From the NCBI GenBank assembly GCA_964577995.1, contig CAZOBP010000002.1, positions 15,972 through 79,971 on the forward strand: a stretch of DNA of 64,000 nt, in the 5' to 3' direction. The translations under genes and the position numbers were made by a program. Source of the stretch: an uncultured Anaerolineales bacterium. GTDB taxonomy: Bacteria > Chloroflexota > Anaerolineae > UBA7937 > B3-Chlor. Below the pieces are notes generated by a model, which saw nothing but the letters and a program-made list of their open reading frames with translations, did no database searches and was not told the DNA's origin. Positions 54,605 to 61,797 of the stretch are shown piece by piece (within the stretch, counting starts at the first letter, position 1; each line of letters starts with the position of its first letter).

Positions 54605-54634
54605 TTGCTAGGGTCAATGTGTCGATGCTATAAT
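54605..54634 (+). promoter_or_regulatory. Sigma70-like promoter TTGCTA-18nt-TATAAT
   Basis: TTGCTA at 54605-10 and TATAAT at 54629-34. An AAAGGGGG RBS precedes the GTG at 54670. Confidence 0.5.
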
Positions 54635-54669: not shown

Positions 54670-55326
54670 GTGACTCGTGAGACATTCGACGAACAGCTAA
54701 GAGCGCTCGAGCAAGATGTCCTGGAAATGGGCAAGATGGTCGACAAGGCGATTGACCTCAGTGTCGAGGCTCTCAAGAAGCGAGACATCGATCTCTCCCG
54801 GCAGGTGGTACGAGACGACTTGGCGATCAACCAGGCCCAACACGACATCGAGGAGCAGTGTCTCGTGTTGATTGCCACGCAGCAGCCCCTGGCCAGTGAT
54901 CTTAGAGTGATCTTTGCCATCGCCAACATAGCCACAGAGCTGGAGCGGATGGCGGACCACGCCAAGGGGATTGGGCAGATCGGAGTCATGATGGGCCCTC
55001 GTGAACCCCTCAAGCCGCTCGTGGACATCCCCCGCATGGCCAGGAAGGGCCGCTGGCTGCTGGAGCAGGAGCTGACGGCCTTCGTCAACCGTGACACCGA
55101 GCTGGCCAGAAGCCTGGGCGACGAGGATGACGAGGTGGACAGGCTCTACGACCAGGTCTTCCGGGAGTTGCTCATCTTCATGATGGACGACCCGCGTACC
55201 ATCACCAGGGCGACTTATCTTCTCTGGGTCGCTCACAATCTCGAGCGGATTGCCGACCGTGCGATCAACATCGGAGAACGAGTGGTGTTTCTGGTCAGCG
55301 GCGAGGTTGAAGAGCACAATGCCTAG
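54670..55326 (+). CDS. phoU: Phosphate-signalling regulator PhoU
   Basis: 218 aa with two PhoU repeats, each carrying the E..ERIADHA/DRA-type motif (LERMADHAKGI, LERIADRAINI). Confidence 0.9.
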   Translation: MTRETFDEQLRALEQDVLEMGKMVDKAIDLSVEALKKRDIDLSRQVVRDDLAINQAQHDIEEQCLVLIATQQPLASDLRVIFAIANIATELERMADHAKGIGQIGVMMGPREPLKPLVDIPRMARKGRWLLEQELTAFVNRDTELARSLGDEDDEVDRLYDQVFRELLIFMMDDPRTITRATYLLWVAHNLERIADRAINIGERVVFLVSGEVEEHNA

Positions 55327-56467
55327 GGAGAAGTCGGGGAGCGACATGGATGCCCGCGAGACCAGACAGCGCGTGGACTGGCTTGACCAGGAGCGACAGC
55401 GCGACAAGGCGCTTCTTGCTGAACTACAGAAGAGGGTGGAGCAGCAGGAGGCACAACTCACTCACGCTCAGGAGGCCACGGAGGCGTTGTCGGAAACCTT
55501 GAGCCGCGGCTCAGTCGAGGCGAGGAGTCTGTCCAGGTTCGAAAAGGCGTTGCAGCAGTTCAAGGAAGAGATCATGCTGGAGCTCCGTAAGGCTGAGGAG
55601 CATCTGGCCAAGGATAGTCAGAGCGCGGACAGCCATCTGCGGGAGGAAAGGCGTGAGCGGCAGAATGCCCTCGCTCGACTTGAGCAGCGCATAGAGGAGG
55701 CGTTCCGACTGGAGGTCACACTGCGTACCCAGCGGGTGGACATAGACCGTCTGACCAAGACTGCGGCGGCCCTAGGTACACAGATGGAGGGGATGTTCAA
55801 AGAGAGGCGGGAACAGCAGGAGACGTTGCTGGCACTTGAGGACCGAATCAGAAGAAGTGAAGAGAGGACGACCGATCTCCTCCAGGCACGCGAAGCGGCG
55901 AGCTCGAGGTCCGACGACATCGTCGAAAGTCTTAGGCTTGCGCAGACTCAGATAGAGCGACTATCCCAGCAGACTTCGGATCTGGAATCGTCTCGTGAAG
56001 AGGTCAGGCAGGAACACACTGCGATTGCCGAGGAACTCCGGGCGGTGGATGACAGGGTGAAGAAGCAGATCGCCGGCTGGACAAAGGAGATGGGCAAGTG
56101 GCGCGGCAGTGCAGAGGAGTTGAGGGAGCGCGTGGCACTATCGGACAAGCAACTCAGAAACGGCGAGAAGATGCTGGCGTCTTTGCATGAGATGAGCATC
56201 CAACTGGAGAAGGATCGGGAGTCCATTCAGCATGTAGAGCGGACGGCAGAGGAACGGCAACGACAGCAGCTCGAGGAGTGGCGACAGGAGAATGCACTCC
56301 TCTGGTTGAGAAACGACGAGAGGTGGGAGCAACTGGCCGGGGAGAACGCCAAGCGCGATGACCACATAAGGGGATTGTGGGGGACCCAGTTGTCATACCT
56401 GCGACGTGAGGTCGGCGAACTGGAGAAGTTGATGAAGGAACTGGGGAAGCGGCTTACACGCCGGTAG
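55319..56467 (+). CDS. Coiled-coil protein of unknown function
   Basis: About 380 aa rich in E/R/L/Q, with a heptad-like character throughout. The ATG overlaps the phoU stop region. Confidence 0.55.
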   Translation: MPREKSGSDMDARETRQRVDWLDQERQRDKALLAELQKRVEQQEAQLTHAQEATEALSETLSRGSVEARSLSRFEKALQQFKEEIMLELRKAEEHLAKDSQSADSHLREERRERQNALARLEQRIEEAFRLEVTLRTQRVDIDRLTKTAAALGTQMEGMFKERREQQETLLALEDRIRRSEERTTDLLQAREAASSRSDDIVESLRLAQTQIERLSQQTSDLESSREEVRQEHTAIAEELRAVDDRVKKQIAGWTKEMGKWRGSAEELRERVALSDKQLRNGEKMLASLHEMSIQLEKDRESIQHVERTAEERQRQQLEEWRQENALLWLRNDERWEQLAGENAKRDDHIRGLWGTQLSYLRREVGELEKLMKELGKRLTRR

Positions 56468-56472
56468 GCAAC

Positions 56473-58389
56473 ATGACGCAGTCCATTCGGACCATCGGAA
56501 CAGCAGGGCACGTTGACCACGGCAAGTCTGCCCTCGTGAAGGCACTCACCGGCATAGATCCCGACCGGCTCAAGGAAGAGAAGGAGAGGGAGATGACCAT
56601 CGACCTGGGCTTTGCCTGGCTGACGTTGCCCAGCGGCGCAGTGGCGAGCATCGTGGACGTGCCGGGACACGAGAGCTTCATCAAGAACATGCTGGCTGGT
56701 GTAGGTGGCATAGATGCTGCTCTGTTTGTCGTGGCTGCTGACGAGGGTATCATGCCCCAGACCCGGGAGCATCTCGACATACTTGACCTTCTGCTGCTGG
56801 AGCACGGCGTAGTCGCCATCACCAAAGTGGACGTCGTCGAGGACCAGGAGTGGCTGGAGTTGGTCACGGACGACGTCGCAGAACTGATCGAAGATACTAC
56901 ACTTTCAGAGGCTGAGATTGTGCCCGTCTCCGCCGTAACTGGCGCGGGAATCGATTCACTGCTGGGGAAGCTAGATGACTTATTGGAGCATGTCCCTCCC
57001 AAACGAGATATCGGGAAACCGCGCCTCCCCATCGACAGGGTGTTCGTGATGTCCGGTTTTGGCACCGTGGTCACCGGGACGCTCGTCGATGGTAGTCTCG
57101 AGGTGGGCCAGGAAGTGGAGATTCTGCCATCCGGGCTCAAAGCGCGCATACGGGGTTTGCAGACTCACCGTCAGAAGCTGGAAGCGACTGCTCCTGGTGG
57201 TCGAGTGGCCGTAAATCTCGGGGGTGTGAGCAGCGACCAATTGCGGCGAGGAGACGTGCTGACGCTGCCTGGCCGGCTGGAGCGCAGTTTCCTGGTGGAT
57301 GCACGGCTCAGTCTGTTGCCGACTGCCCCCAGAGTCCTCAAACACAATGTGCCGGTGGAGTTCTACAGCGGTTCAGCCCAGATCATGGCCCATCTCCGGC
57401 TGCTTGATGACGAGACCCTACGGCCAGGCGAGGAGGGCTGGGTCCAGTTTCGATTGTCGTCGCCAACCGCTGTGCTGCGCGGCGATCGCTTCATCATACG
57501 GCAACCTTCTCCCAGCCTGACCATTGGCGGCGGAGTGGTCGTCGATCCAGTCCCACGACGTCGTCATCGGCGCTTCCGTCCTGTGCTGGTGCAGCGGCTC
57601 GAGGCTCTGTTGCGCGGGAGTCCCGAGGAGATCCTGCTGGAGGCTGCGCAGGGCCCGCGCCCGCGACAGGTGGGCGAGGTGGTGAACGACAGCGGCTTGG
57701 TGGAGGACAACGGTAGAGAGGCTCTGGGCGGGCTTCTGCGCACAGGGCAGGTGCTACTGCTCGGTGCAGGTGACTCAGCGGCCAGTGGCCCGGCGACCGA
57801 TGACCGGTATGTGATGGCCATCACCAGCTACCAAGAACTGATGAGTCGCATGGAGGCCTGGTTGCAGGAGTACCACCAACGCTATCCACTACGCCCTGGC
57901 ATGCCACGCGAGGAACTGAAGAGCAGGTCGAACCTCCCTAGCCGTGCGTTCAGCCAGTTCCTGGAGCGCGCCGCTGATCAAGGTGGACTGGTCGAAGCAG
58001 GAGCAGTCGTCAGGTTGCCACAACATCAGGTCAGATTCAGTGCCGAACAGCAGCGAAGGGTCGACGAGTTGCTGGCGACGTTGGCCGAGAGTGCGTACTC
58101 CACCCCGTCGGTGGCCGAGACCGAGGCCGCAGTAGGGTTGGAGGCGCTCAATCTGTTGCTGGATGAAGGGCGCTTGGTGCGTGTGAGCGAGACCGTTCTC
58201 TTCCTGCGGGAAACCTATCAGGAGATGGTGGAGCGTGTGATCGCTCACATCGAGGAGCACGGGAGCATCACTGTCGCACAGGTGCGCGACATGTTCCAGG
58301 CGAGCCGTAAGTACGCCCTGGCCCTGATGGAACATCTGGACGATCAGCGCATTACCAAGAGGGTGGGCGATGAGCGAGTGCTGCGCTGA
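56473..58389 (+). CDS. selB: Selenocysteine-specific translation elongation factor SelB
   Basis: IGTAGHVDHGKSALVKALTGIDPDRLKEEKEREMTIDLGFA, DVPGHE and TKVD. A long C-terminal winged-helix extension gives 638 aa. Confidence 0.9.
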   Translation: MTQSIRTIGTAGHVDHGKSALVKALTGIDPDRLKEEKEREMTIDLGFAWLTLPSGAVASIVDVPGHESFIKNMLAGVGGIDAALFVVAADEGIMPQTREHLDILDLLLLEHGVVAITKVDVVEDQEWLELVTDDVAELIEDTTLSEAEIVPVSAVTGAGIDSLLGKLDDLLEHVPPKRDIGKPRLPIDRVFVMSGFGTVVTGTLVDGSLEVGQEVEILPSGLKARIRGLQTHRQKLEATAPGGRVAVNLGGVSSDQLRRGDVLTLPGRLERSFLVDARLSLLPTAPRVLKHNVPVEFYSGSAQIMAHLRLLDDETLRPGEEGWVQFRLSSPTAVLRGDRFIIRQPSPSLTIGGGVVVDPVPRRRHRRFRPVLVQRLEALLRGSPEEILLEAAQGPRPRQVGEVVNDSGLVEDNGREALGGLLRTGQVLLLGAGDSAASGPATDDRYVMAITSYQELMSRMEAWLQEYHQRYPLRPGMPREELKSRSNLPSRAFSQFLERAADQGGLVEAGAVVRLPQHQVRFSAEQQRRVDELLATLAESAYSTPSVAETEAAVGLEALNLLLDEGRLVRVSETVLFLRETYQEMVERVIAHIEEHGSITVAQVRDMFQASRKYALALMEHLDDQRITKRVGDERVLR

Positions 58390-58398
58390 GCGCGGACC

Positions 58399-59571
58399 AT
58401 GCCGCTGAAGCTGGACTTGCTCGGTCAGCGAATAACCGAGATGGTGCAGGCCAGCGCTGCGGAGGATCGCGGGCGCTGGGTCGAGAGGGCGCTACAGCTC
58501 TTGGACTCCGTCGGTCCAGAGCAGCTCAGAGCCAAGTTGGAGGAGCGTGTTGTCCGGCTGCCTTGGCTCGTGGGTATCCCTGACGGCGGCGTCAATGGAG
58601 CGTTCGAGGTGCAGGAGTGCCCTTCGAGCTTCAGTGTGGTGGCTGCGGACGGCTCCTACATAGCTCCGGATCGGCACAGTCCTTTTCGGTTCTACGTCCT
58701 CAACACTGGCTACGCCGTCCTCACCTACGGAAGGCAGCCCTCCGCTGTCCTCGACTCCTCGGCTCAACTCTACTTCCAAGAGCAAGACCTGTACCTGGAT
58801 CCTCTGGTACGGAGTGCGCCGGTAGAAGGTGCGCGCCTGAGCGCCAAGATGTGCCTGGCGGAGATGAGAGCGCTGCTGGAGGCGGCTGAGCGGGTCGAGG
58901 GACGCCCATTGGTGGCTCTGCGCGACGGGTCGCTGATCACCTGGGGGCTACAGACCGAAGACCCCGCTTTTGTACAAGAGCGATTCCTCACCGAGTTCTT
59001 GACCTACCTGGAGAGGTTCGATGCACTGGGTATTCCGCTAGTCAGTTACATCAGCTATCCAGGGGCTCGTGACGTGGTCAACTCACTCAGGGTCTGGTTG
59101 TGCACCCAGGGCGACATGGACTGCGCCAGGTGTCCATCCGCTGACGTCGAGCAGTTCTGCAGGGCCTTGAGGGAGATCCGAGACCGGGAGTTGTTCGGCT
59201 TCCTCCAGGACGGTGAGCGTTCGGATGTCTTCGGCAGCAAGTCGGCCATTCTGAATCGATATGGGCTTCATCGTATTCATTTCTTCTACATGAACGTCGG
59301 TGGCGAGGTTGTGCGGCTGGAAGCTCCTCAGTGGGTAACCGGTGACTCCCAGACGTTGCGCCTGGTGCAGGCGCTGATCTACGATCAGGCCCGGAGGAGC
59401 GCCATCCACCCGCCGTACCCTCCCGCCTTGCAGGAGGCCCATGAGGAGGCGTTCATCTCGGGGTCCGATAGACGACTGGTCCAGCTCCTGGTAGAACGCT
59501 CACTGGCAGAGCGGGGATTCGTCTACAGTGGCTCGGCGAAGAGCGGCAGCAAGAGAAGGCGAGGTGTATGA
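58399..59571 (+). CDS. nurA: NurA-domain nuclease
   Basis: VVAADGSYIAPD and ALRDGSLITWGL are typical NurA D-G-S blocks. 390 aa; the stop overlaps the next start (ATGA). Confidence 0.7.
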   Translation: MPLKLDLLGQRITEMVQASAAEDRGRWVERALQLLDSVGPEQLRAKLEERVVRLPWLVGIPDGGVNGAFEVQECPSSFSVVAADGSYIAPDRHSPFRFYVLNTGYAVLTYGRQPSAVLDSSAQLYFQEQDLYLDPLVRSAPVEGARLSAKMCLAEMRALLEAAERVEGRPLVALRDGSLITWGLQTEDPAFVQERFLTEFLTYLERFDALGIPLVSYISYPGARDVVNSLRVWLCTQGDMDCARCPSADVEQFCRALREIRDRELFGFLQDGERSDVFGSKSAILNRYGLHRIHFFYMNVGGEVVRLEAPQWVTGDSQTLRLVQALIYDQARRSAIHPPYPPALQEAHEEAFISGSDRRLVQLLVERSLAERGFVYSGSAKSGSKRRRGV

Positions 59572-60158
59572 GAATCGGGGAGATCGTCGAGAGTACCAGC
59601 ACGCACTTCGTGGCAGAGAGCCTCGACTTGGGACGCCCGCCCGAACTGGGAAGACTGGTCAAAGTGCACCTTGCAGAGGACCGCGATCTGTGCGCTGTGG
59701 TCTGCCACGGTGAGACGGGCAGCCTCGATCCGGGTCGGCGCGCCGTGCGGAGGAGCACGGAAGAGGTGTACGACGATCAGGTATATCGGGAGCACCCACA
59801 GCTCGAACACGTCCTTCGTACCCAGTTCACCAGCCTCGCGGTGGGGGTCATTGACAAGGAAGTCGTTCACCAGGGTCTGCCTTCTCAGCCTCCCCCGCTC
59901 CATTACTCTGTGCATGGGTGCGACGAGGAGGAGACGACCCGCTTCACGCAGGACCTGTACTACTTCCGTCTTCTGCTGGGGGTGCCGGTTCGGATCCCGG
60001 TGGAACTCGTTCTCGCGGGGCACCTGAGGTGGGTGTACCGCGGGCGAGGCCACGACGAGGAGTGGCTGCAAGTGGCTGCACGAGAGGTCGCGAAGCTGTT
60101 GAAGCAGGACTACGAACGGCTGGCGACCGTTCTGTACGCCATCGAGCGCGATACCTAG
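59568..60158 (+). CDS. Hypothetical protein, N-terminus resembles a HerA-type HAS-barrel
   Basis: IGEIVESTSTHFVAESLDLGRPPELGRLVKVHL follows the same pattern as the HerA N-terminus downstream (LGLVTGGTFKTGLGVRL...LRVGEMVVIE). This is similarity by eye only. Confidence 0.4.
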   Translation: MRIGEIVESTSTHFVAESLDLGRPPELGRLVKVHLAEDRDLCAVVCHGETGSLDPGRRAVRRSTEEVYDDQVYREHPQLEHVLRTQFTSLAVGVIDKEVVHQGLPSQPPPLHYSVHGCDEEETTRFTQDLYYFRLLLGVPVRIPVELVLAGHLRWVYRGRGHDEEWLQVAAREVAKLLKQDYERLATVLYAIERDT

Positions 60159-60183
60159 CTCCACAGGGAGGAGTCTTGGTGGG

Positions 60184-61797
60184 ATGAGGCGAACGCGATT
60201 AGGCTTGGTCACGGGTGGGACCTTCAAGACAGGGTTGGGGGTCAGGTTGGATGCTGACTGCACGACCGAGGACCTGCGCGTTGGGGAGATGGTCGTCATC
60301 GAAGGAGCCTCCAATCGCTACTTCGGCATGATAACCGACATGCAACTCCAGGCCACCGATCCCAGACTGCTCGCTTCTCCCCCGGAGGCTGGATCGACCC
60401 TGCTGGCGCAAGCTTTGACCGGAACCGTCAACTACGCCACGGTAGAGGTCAAACCCATGCTGATGCTGGAACTGAAAGCCGATCTCGACGAGCAGAGGGG
60501 CCCTGGACCGGTTCGGACCATACCCATGCACTTCGCCGCTCTGCGCAAGGCCAGCGCCATGGACTTCGACACCGTGTTCGGGAAGGAAGGGGGCACCAAC
60601 TTCGCTGTAGGCACGCCTGTGCCCATGGACATCCCCATCCGCCTACGTCTGGATAGGTTCGTGGAGCGCTCCAATGGCATCTTTGGTCAGTCGGGCACGG
60701 GCAAGAGCTTCCTGGCGCGGGTGCTGCTGTGCGGCGTGATCAGGACGCGTGCCGCAGCCAACCTGATCTTCGACATGCACAGCGAATATGCCTTCGACAA
60801 GCAGACCGAGGACGGTCACTTTGTGAGGGGCCTGCGCGACCTGTTTGGCCCTCAGATTCTGGTCTACTCGCTGGATGAGGGGGCTGCGGCTCGGCGTAAC
60901 GTAGACGTGACCCTGGCGGTCGGTCTGAACCAGATCGAGGCCGAGGATATCATGCTCCTGGCCGACGAACTGGACTTGACGTCTACCACGGCCGCCACGG
61001 CGGGGCTGCTGGGGGACCAGTACGGCAAGGAGTGGCTGCGCCAGCTCTTGGCGATGTCAGCGGACGACGTGGCGGAGTTCTGCCAATCCTCTGGAGCTCA
61101 TCCCGAAGCGACGCGAGCACTACAGCGCAAGCTGAGGGGGGTCCAGCGTCGTGCATATCTCAAGGAGGAGGCGCCTTTCTCCCTCATCGACGAGATGGTG
61201 GCGGCATTGGGGAGGGGCCGCAGCATCATCCTCGAGTTTGGGCGGTTCGACAGTCCTCTGGACTACATGCTGGTCGCCAACATCGTGACACGCCGCATCC
61301 GCAGGCTGTACCAGCAGAAGGTGGAGCGCTTCGAGGAGACGAAGGCTGAGTCCGACAGGCCGCTTCAGTTAGTGATCACCCTGGAGGAGGCGCACAAGTT
61401 CCTTAGCCCCGCCGTGGCCAGCCAGACCATCTTTGGGACCATCGCCCGTGAGATGCGGAAATACAACGTCACGCTGATGGTCATCGACCAGCGCCCCAGC
61501 GGTATTGACCCCGAGGTAATGTCCCAGTTGGGCACAAGGGTGACAGGCTTGCTGACCGAGGAACGGGACATAGACGCGGTCTTCACAGGGGTGGGCGGCC
61601 GCTCCTTCCTGAGAGGCGCCTTGGCCAGCCTGGACACCCGCCAGCAGGTTCTCCTGATGGGTCACGCGGTGCCCATGCCCGTGGTGGTTCAGACGCGTAC
61701 TTACGATGAGGAGTTCTACCGGGCGGTGGGGAGCTCTGGCTCCTGGACAGAGGACAGAGAGATCAACGCTACCGACATCTGGGGGAAAAAGCAGTAA
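60184..61797 (+). CDS. herA: HerA/FtsK-like hexameric ATPase (DUF87 type)
   Basis: N-terminal barrel, Walker A GQSGTGKSFL, Walker B LVITLEEAHKFL, and MVIDQRPS. Confidence 0.8.
   Translation: MRRTRLGLVTGGTFKTGLGVRLDADCTTEDLRVGEMVVIEGASNRYFGMITDMQLQATDPRLLASPPEAGSTLLAQALTGTVNYATVEVKPMLMLELKADLDEQRGPGPVRTIPMHFAALRKASAMDFDTVFGKEGGTNFAVGTPVPMDIPIRLRLDRFVERSNGIFGQSGTGKSFLARVLLCGVIRTRAAANLIFDMHSEYAFDKQTEDGHFVRGLRDLFGPQILVYSLDEGAAARRNVDVTLAVGLNQIEAEDIMLLADELDLTSTTAATAGLLGDQYGKEWLRQLLAMSADDVAEFCQSSGAHPEATRALQRKLRGVQRRAYLKEEAPFSLIDEMVAALGRGRSIILEFGRFDSPLDYMLVANIVTRRIRRLYQQKVERFEETKAESDRPLQLVITLEEAHKFLSPAVASQTIFGTIAREMRKYNVTLMVIDQRPSGIDPEVMSQLGTRVTGLLTEERDIDAVFTGVGGRSFLRGALASLDTRQQVLLMGHAVPMPVVVQTRTYDEEFYRAVGSSGSWTEDREINATDIWGKKQ

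Follow-up and report, generated by a model that had tools for sequence, protein, structure and literature searches.

A HAS-Barrel Protein Encoded Between nurA and herA in Chloroflexota, Probably a Third Part of the NurA–HerA Machine

Introduction

NurA, a nuclease, and HerA, an ATPase, serve as a model helicase–nuclease pair for DNA-end resection, and relatives of HerA are prominent in anti-phage systems. The HAS barrel holds HerA rings together, and the NurA dimer docks on it. All solved NurA–HerA complexes that we know of are two-component. Here, we analyse a locus in which a third gene, named X in the following, lies between nurA and herA. It is located in a stretch of 64,000 nucleotides (nt), referred to as the window, from an uncultured Anaerolineales bacterium of the phylum Chloroflexota (assembly GCA_964577995.1, contig CAZOBP010000002.1, positions 15,972 to 79,971). 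X codes for a HAS barrel devoid of an ATPase domain, and is probably an undescribed third part of the NurA–HerA machine.

The structures used for comparison are those from Sulfolobus solfataricus (4D2I), Thermococcus kodakarensis (9X1L/9X1M), and Deinococcus radiodurans (7F6D/7WRW; PMC3326311, PMC5715905, PMC9960219, PMC12977600). The window resembles these systems in encoding a NurA with intact motifs and a hexameric-type HerA that possesses both a HAS barrel and the Walker A and B motifs, co-oriented in one operon. However, the characterised complexes are composed of two components (NurA2:HerA6), whereas the window has a third, barrel-only gene between them. Furthermore, the linkage of archaeal NurA–HerA operons to mre11/rad50 is not found for the window operon, which adjoins selB. 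With regard to bacteria, the Thermus and Deinococcus systems are the only characterised ones according to a 2026 review (PMC13748450).

The nurA–X–herA Operon

The three genes follow one another on the forward strand. The nurA gene (58399–59571) codes for a NurA nuclease of 390 residues with intact motifs I, II, and III, X (59568–60158) for a protein of 196 residues composed of a HAS barrel and four helices, and herA (60184–61797) for a HerA ATPase of 537 residues. The nurA stop and the X start share an ATGA overlap (59568–59571, forward strand; the junction reads GTATGAGA at 59566–59573), indicative of translational coupling, while X and herA are separated by a spacer of 25 nt (60159–60183, forward strand) that holds a Shine–Dalgarno-like GGGAGGAG. 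An earlier note on this DNA, which had proposed a NurA/HerA pair split by a coupled gene, gave the outer coordinates (58399–61797), the overlap, and the gap correctly, and the N-terminus it quoted for X is exact.

NurA matches Pfam PF09376 (6.3e-24) over residues 79–351, corresponding to model positions 2–252 of 254, and harbours the motifs VVAADGS (80–86), ALRDGS (173–178), and LQEAHEEAF (344–352); a search among PDB sequences gave no match for it. HerA matches Pfam DUF87 (2.5e-29), and PDB HerA chains at 1e-15. It carries its own N-terminal HAS barrel (residues 7–55, Pfam 1.2e-5), a Walker A motif GQSGTGKS (168–175), and a Walker B motif VITLEEAH (397–404), and its gene is the sole strong DUF87 match in the genome. 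The D-G-S blocks of NurA and the GTGKS and ITLEEAH signatures of HerA, which the earlier note had quoted, are present where it had placed them.

A Stand-Alone HAS Barrel Followed by Four Helices

The structure of X was modelled by AlphaFold2 on a 31-sequence alignment, with a predicted local distance difference test score (pLDDT) of 84.2 and a predicted template modelling score (pTM) of 0.80. The model comprises a HAS beta-barrel at residues 1–117 (59568–59918, forward strand; strands 2–9, 13–18, 30–35, 39–53, 82–96, 99–102, and 114–117) and a C-terminal four-helix domain at residues 118–196 (59919–60155, forward strand), the helical part of which extends over residues 120–193 in the full-length model. 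When the model was compared with the PDB by Foldseek, all 50 matches listed were HerA-family chains, including S. solfataricus 4D2I, TdpA, DUF4297-HerA, SIR2-HerA, and the HerA proteins of T. kodakarensis and D. radiodurans, with E-values of 4.2e-6 to 6e-4, a probability of 1.00, TMq values of 0.34–0.45, and 125–188 aligned columns. Among 40 diverse members of the X family, 20 match the Pfam HAS-barrel model PF09378 (best 1.8e-8), and one member (P0295) has a precomputed PF09378 tag. The resemblance of the X N-terminus to a HAS barrel, first noticed by eye, is therefore borne out both by the fold and by sequence at the family level. A search of the PDB sequences with the X-family profile returned a single insignificant match.

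Residues 1–117 of X share their predicted fold with the HAS barrel (PF09378) of HerA and with the N-terminal crown barrel of F1-ATPase subunits. The X barrel differs from these in that it stands alone, without a RecA-like ATPase domain, in the conserved loop inserted into it, and in the four-helix domain, without detectable relative, that comes after it. The insert loop, of about 28 residues (54–81; 59727–59810, forward strand), is highly conserved and poorly modelled. Its core, D54-P-G-R-R-A-V-R-R-S63, is among the most conserved stretches of the protein, with P55, G56, R57, A59, and R61 invariant in one alignment (A1) and R57 near-invariant in a diverse one (A2); residues 56–68 have a pLDDT below 50, and the net charge of the loop is −2. 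The C-terminal domain, when folded alone by AlphaFold2, forms four helices (3–21, 28–42, 47–61, and 65–76 of the domain; pLDDT of 80), and no fold relative could be assigned to it, since Foldseek returned nothing below an E-value of 5 in the PDB. The X-family profile gave no signal with the HerA of its own operon, which rules out that X arose by a recent duplication of the N-terminal part of the window herA.

X as a Conserved Chloroflexota Gene

Searches of Pfam, NCBIfam, PADLOC, and PHROGs gave no match for the window X. It is nevertheless more than a chance open reading frame, as can be concluded from a ratio of nonsynonymous to synonymous substitution rates of 0.11–0.13 against orthologues at 87–91% identity, from 350 homologues in a word-indexed search (nearly all 195–210 residues long), from 502 clusters at 50% identity in an exhaustive HMMER search (236 of them below 1e-10), and from its presence in 30 of 41 related genomes. 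The earlier note had made its proposal depend on conservation of the middle frame, and this frame is indeed conserved and under purifying selection. All homologues with a named source belong to Chloroflexota, namely, to Anaerolineae, Dehalococcoidia, Caldilineae, or Ardenticatenia. Where homologues are longer, the additional residues stem from insertions in loops, from spurious extensions of the frame at high GC, or from a chimeric C-terminus. Finally, X is an acidic protein, with a net charge of −9.

The neighbourhood of X was surveyed at 49 loci from species-representative genomes. The nurA gene is directly upstream of X in 41 of them. Of the 39 nurA–X junctions that could be measured, 21 overlap, in 19 cases by the 4 nt seen in the window, and no junction exceeds 250 nt. 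On the other side, herA overlaps X or begins within 60 nt in 14 of the 21 loci where the distance could be measured; it is pushed away from X by inserted genes in six loci, and in several loci it is not found within 5 kb, X being then followed by an unrelated gene, for a peptidase, for a glycosyltransferase, or for a restriction-modification methylase. The order nurA–X–herA is fixed, and when the operon breaks, X mostly follows nurA: it stays with nurA, with herA elsewhere, in L032, L035, L037, L040, L041, and in genome G235, where herA is on another contig. The reverse is seen in the Dehalococcoidia locus L063 and in the metagenome contig L064, where X shares a 4-nt overlap with herA, and nurA is set apart by insertions (L063) or missing from the flank (L064). 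The flanking phoU, coiled-coil, selB, and permease genes are kept across many genera, and the selB–nurA adjacency occurs also in L063. According to the 2026 review, bacterial nurA shows no stable synteny with herA (PMC13748450), a statement that the conserved nurA–X–herA synteny described here contradicts.

Insertions are tolerated by the operon. In one Anaerolineae lineage (L020 3754–4509, L033 5628–6392, and L030), X and herA are separated by a conserved gene of about 250 residues with a MauJ-like C-terminal domain (PF17419, 3.7e-14), and a 1349-residue Eco57I/MmeI-type methylase gene comes directly after X in L035 (5631–9680). Between nurA and X, L063 (3287–4906) has a gene for a 331-residue protein without Pfam match, a DUF7387 gene, and a HicA-toxin gene, and an insertion sequence (rve transposase) is present upstream of X in L064 (2729–3858).

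The distribution was analysed in 301 Chloroflexota genomes of at least 85% completeness, plus the genome of the window itself (84%). As the sampled genomes are mutually related, the counts describe lineages and not independent trials. Among the 301 genomes, X is present in 122 and NurA in 195, and a sister gene of X, called X' and described in the next section, in 70. Cross-reading of the three tables indicated that 188 of the 195 NurA-positive genomes have X or X', and that NurA is present in 188 of the 191 genomes that possess X or X'. The two genes are mutually exclusive, with one gene, in G113, scoring for both. The seven genomes with NurA alone mostly have weak NurA matches or are fragmented. 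In the lineages that possess X, most genomes have it as a single locus. A three-component variant, as considered in the earlier note, is supported by the conserved gene order, the translational coupling, and a near-perfect co-occurrence with NurA. Of note, the only X-positive genome without a NurA match (G296) carries, on contig C44 (3284–3879), an X copy broken by TAG and TAA stops, which is consistent with a joint loss.

The Sister Family DUF8166

The Chloroflexota lineages negative for X still possess NurA, and a gene of about 200 codons, X', is found between their nurA and herA. The X' proteins are all tagged as Pfam PF26500 (DUF8166), a tag that is not precomputed for any X-family protein, and comparison of the X and X' alignments by hhalign gave 173 aligned columns with 96% probability and an E-value of 2e-9. 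X is therefore a distant homologous sister of DUF8166 and, judging from the precomputed tags, not a member at the Pfam threshold. The possibility had been raised that the system is already catalogued; this holds for the sister family, which is in Pfam as a domain of unknown function, and does not for X, which appears to lie outside the Pfam model. No paper on DUF8166/PF26500 was found, and no third subunit is described in the titles and abstracts retrieved for HAS barrels and NurA, nor in the passages of PMC9960219 dealing with the complex.

The proteins of both families are about 200 residues long, their genes take the same place, in the same order, between nurA and herA, and their partner NurA has the same basic tail (see below). 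They differ in that they occur in other lineages, to mutual exclusion, and in that their partners are strongly diverged: in phmmer comparisons, NurA and HerA score between 1e-6 and 1e-21 across the two types, as against 1e-44 to 1e-147 within a type, so the partners diverged in step with the X/X' split. The type-2 operons, those with X', have the order mre11 (Metallophos)–rad50 (SMC_N)–nurA–DUF8166–herA, whereas the X-type, or type-1, operons lack mre11–rad50. Moreover, when type-2 operons are split, X' is directly upstream of herA in all seven cases examined, unlike X, which mostly follows nurA. That one family follows nurA and the other herA argues for a protein contacting both partners.

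The five-gene order is also annotated on a plasmid of Natrinema zhouii, the one archaeal plasmid locus inspected, and an X' homologue occurs on three further haloarchaeal plasmids. In addition, a GmrSD-type restriction gene (GmrSD_N and HNH) was noticed about 4 kb downstream of a type-2 operon (L083 14076–15380).

The new elements are a sister branch of DUF8166, apparently outside the Pfam model, present in 122 of the 301 sampled Chloroflexota genomes, and an operon type without mre11–rad50, beside selB, in which the barrel gene prefers nurA. A barrel-only protein accompanies nearly every NurA of a bacterial phylum, as well as haloarchaeal cassettes, which points to an unstudied architecture and possibly to a control point for a dangerous nuclease.

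A Basic Tail on NurA

In solved complexes, the NurA dimer docks on the HAS-barrel ring of HerA. PMC9960219 describes the D. radiodurans contact as ionic, with acidic barrel residues facing basic NurA motifs, and mutation of a C-terminal NurA motif (R336, R337, and R339) as weakening the binding. The NurA of the window ends with a basic tail, SAKSGSKRRRGV (59533–59568, forward strand), which is a candidate docking motif for a HAS barrel. The tail falls outside the Pfam NurA domain, and the last 30 residues have a net charge of +5. Its pattern, [SA]-K-x-x-S-K-x-R-R-R, is kept in all three-gene systems examined, that is, in the NurA proteins of type-1 and type-2 Chloroflexota operons and of the Natrinema plasmid (comparison set: L007, L008, L020, L033, L070, L068, L073, L065–L069, and L091). 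The tail is analogous to motif-4 of D. radiodurans NurA (PMC9960219), and we infer that it docks on a HAS barrel. The acidic docking patch of D. radiodurans HerA could not be mapped onto the window HerA, because the PDB alignments reach only the C-terminal part of the ATPase and leave D. radiodurans HerA unmatched.

A Third Subunit, a Regulator, or a Loading Factor

We consider it somewhat probable that X is an obligate third component of a chromosomal NurA–HerA machine for DNA-end processing, in which it would couple NurA to HerA. The basic NurA tail, the acidity of X, its slot between the two genes, and its staying with either of them when the operon breaks suggest that X contacts both proteins. 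Through its barrel, which has no ATPase, X would link the nuclease NurA with the translocase HerA, probably as a ring or collar on the same axis as the HerA hexamer, and most simply as a collar located between the two. The basic C-terminal tail of NurA would bind an acidic barrel surface, and a partner or the DNA would be the target of the conserved DPGRR loop of X.

Several observations weigh against such a role. HerA keeps a HAS barrel of its own, which leaves no obvious need for an adaptor, and in Deinococcus and Sulfolobus the two-component NurA–HerA complexes work without one. The window X itself has no match to the Pfam HAS-barrel model at E ≤ 1, and its family profile, as mentioned above, shows no similarity to the HerA of its operon. 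No natural X–NurA or X–HerA fusion was seen among the long homologues and long open frames, and X is linked to neither partner in some lineages (L039, L049–L051, and L053). A functional unrelatedness of X to NurA–HerA, the operon slot only being shared, could be read from these few loci with neither partner nearby; it appears barely credible in view of the co-occurrence in 188 of 191 genomes, the gene overlaps, the HerA-specific fold, and a gene order kept constant in both families and found also in the archaeal plasmid locus.

The main rival is that X acts as a regulator or decoy and not as a permanent subunit, a barrel mimic that attaches to the NurA dimer and maintains the nuclease in an inactive or stable state until its handover to HerA, or that caps the HerA ring. 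The loci in which X remains with nurA while herA is elsewhere (the five Anaerolineae loci and G235 listed above) fit this possibility, as does the ATGA coupling to nurA, which implies matched synthesis of the two proteins; and since HerA has its own barrel, a second one could compete for the same NurA surface (PMC9960219). We nonetheless regard a regulator as unlikely, given that X' in split operons is always with herA and not with nurA, and that X overlaps herA in L063 and L064; one would not expect a pure inhibitor of NurA to accompany the motor. It is less likely still that X is a recognition or loading factor for DNA ends or lesions, whose Arg-rich loop DPGRRAVRRS would bind DNA and recruit NurA–HerA, taking over part of the role of Mre11–Rad50. 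Such a function would agree with the disorder modelled for this conserved basic loop and with the lack of mre11–rad50 in the type-1 operon of the window, as opposed to type-2 operons. However, X' shares its operon with mre11–rad50 and so replaces nothing, X is acidic overall with a loop of negative net charge, and an SbcD/Mre11-like gene exists elsewhere in the genome.

Beyond the third-subunit reading for X, we tentatively propose, with clearly less confidence, that X and DUF8166 constitute an ancient bacterial–archaeal superfamily of barrel-only HerA paralogues, which would be integral subunits of a three-component class of NurA–HerA systems. A second or mixed HAS-barrel ring between nuclease and motor would then set the feeding of DNA ends to NurA. 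If this is true, the textbook two-subunit NurA–HerA is only one of two solutions.

DNA-End Processing or Defence

The earlier note had left the choice between a repair and a defence module. The evidence at the window locus leans towards chromosomal DNA-end processing, in view of the synteny with phoU, selB, and the permease gene, of the absence of PADLOC matches for NurA and X, and of the absence of plasmid and phage matches. In HerA–effector anti-phage systems, such as SIR2-HerA (Nezha), DUF4297-HerA, and TdpAB, a HerA-family hexamer receives the effector on its HAS-barrel side, and the HerA chains of SIR2-HerA, DUF4297-HerA, and TdpA are among the Foldseek matches listed for X. By contrast, no SIR2, DUF4297, or TdpB-like effector is present at the window locus, which is chromosomal, syntenic, and vertically inherited, and whose NurA and X are absent from PADLOC.

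An anti-phage module of the HerA-plus-effector kind, with NurA as effector and X as adaptor, seems very improbable to us. It would account for the scores of HerA against the PADLOC and NCBIfam anti-phage HerA models (3.4e-27 and 1.3e-19), and would be in line with the review according to which bacterial NurA–HerA mainly degrades foreign DNA (PMC13748450), with the DUF8166-type cassettes of haloarchaeal plasmids, and with the restriction-modification methylase adjoining X in L035. However, the PADLOC matches span only the C-terminal ATPase part of HerA (residues ~365–510), and the NCBIfam score of 70 bits is far below the cut-off of 800, whereas NurA and X have no PADLOC match at all. Furthermore, the same housekeeping neighbours recur across genera, the selB–nurA pair even reaching another class, X is a single locus in most genomes of its lineages, and a comparison with 72,556 plasmids and 50,697 phage records gave no match for it. 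Taken together, the stable housekeeping synteny, the single locus, the lack of mobile-element matches and of PADLOC matches for NurA and X, the partial and sub-threshold matches of HerA, and the presence of mre11–rad50 in the sister operons favour chromosomal DNA-end processing over defence for the window locus. A defence role is possible for the plasmid-borne haloarchaeal DUF8166 cassettes.

Genomic Surroundings of the Locus

In the window, the genes occur in the order phoU, a coiled-coil gene, selB, nurA, X, and herA, followed by a permease-USP gene on the opposite strand. No mre11 or rad50 was found in the operon from the open reading frame list and Pfam searches; the SbcD/Mre11-like match mentioned above is weak and on another contig of the genome. 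A search of the genome for RecB yielded only sub-threshold UvrD- or AddA-like helicases, and nothing firm on alternative resection pathways.

A scan of the region for promoters and terminators gave counts not above those in shuffled sequence. The best sigma-70-like site (54605–54634; TTGCTA, an 18-nt spacer, TG, TATAAT) is just upstream of phoU and could drive a long phoU-to-herA transcript, with the reservation that promoter counts do not exceed those of shuffled sequence. The selB gene (56473–58389, forward strand), which has Pfam SelB domains, ends 9 nt short of nurA and is possibly co-transcribed with it. The adjacency of selB and nurA is found from Anaerolineae to a Dehalococcoidia metagenome-assembled genome (L010–L019, L028, L033, L036, L042, L048, L052, and L063), and selenocysteine decoding has no evident functional connection to a DNA nuclease. 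Finally, the coiled-coil frame between phoU and selB (55250–56467), which has no Pfam match, codes for a Glu- and Arg-rich protein of 405 residues, and its position is kept, at 25–80% identity, in many related loci.

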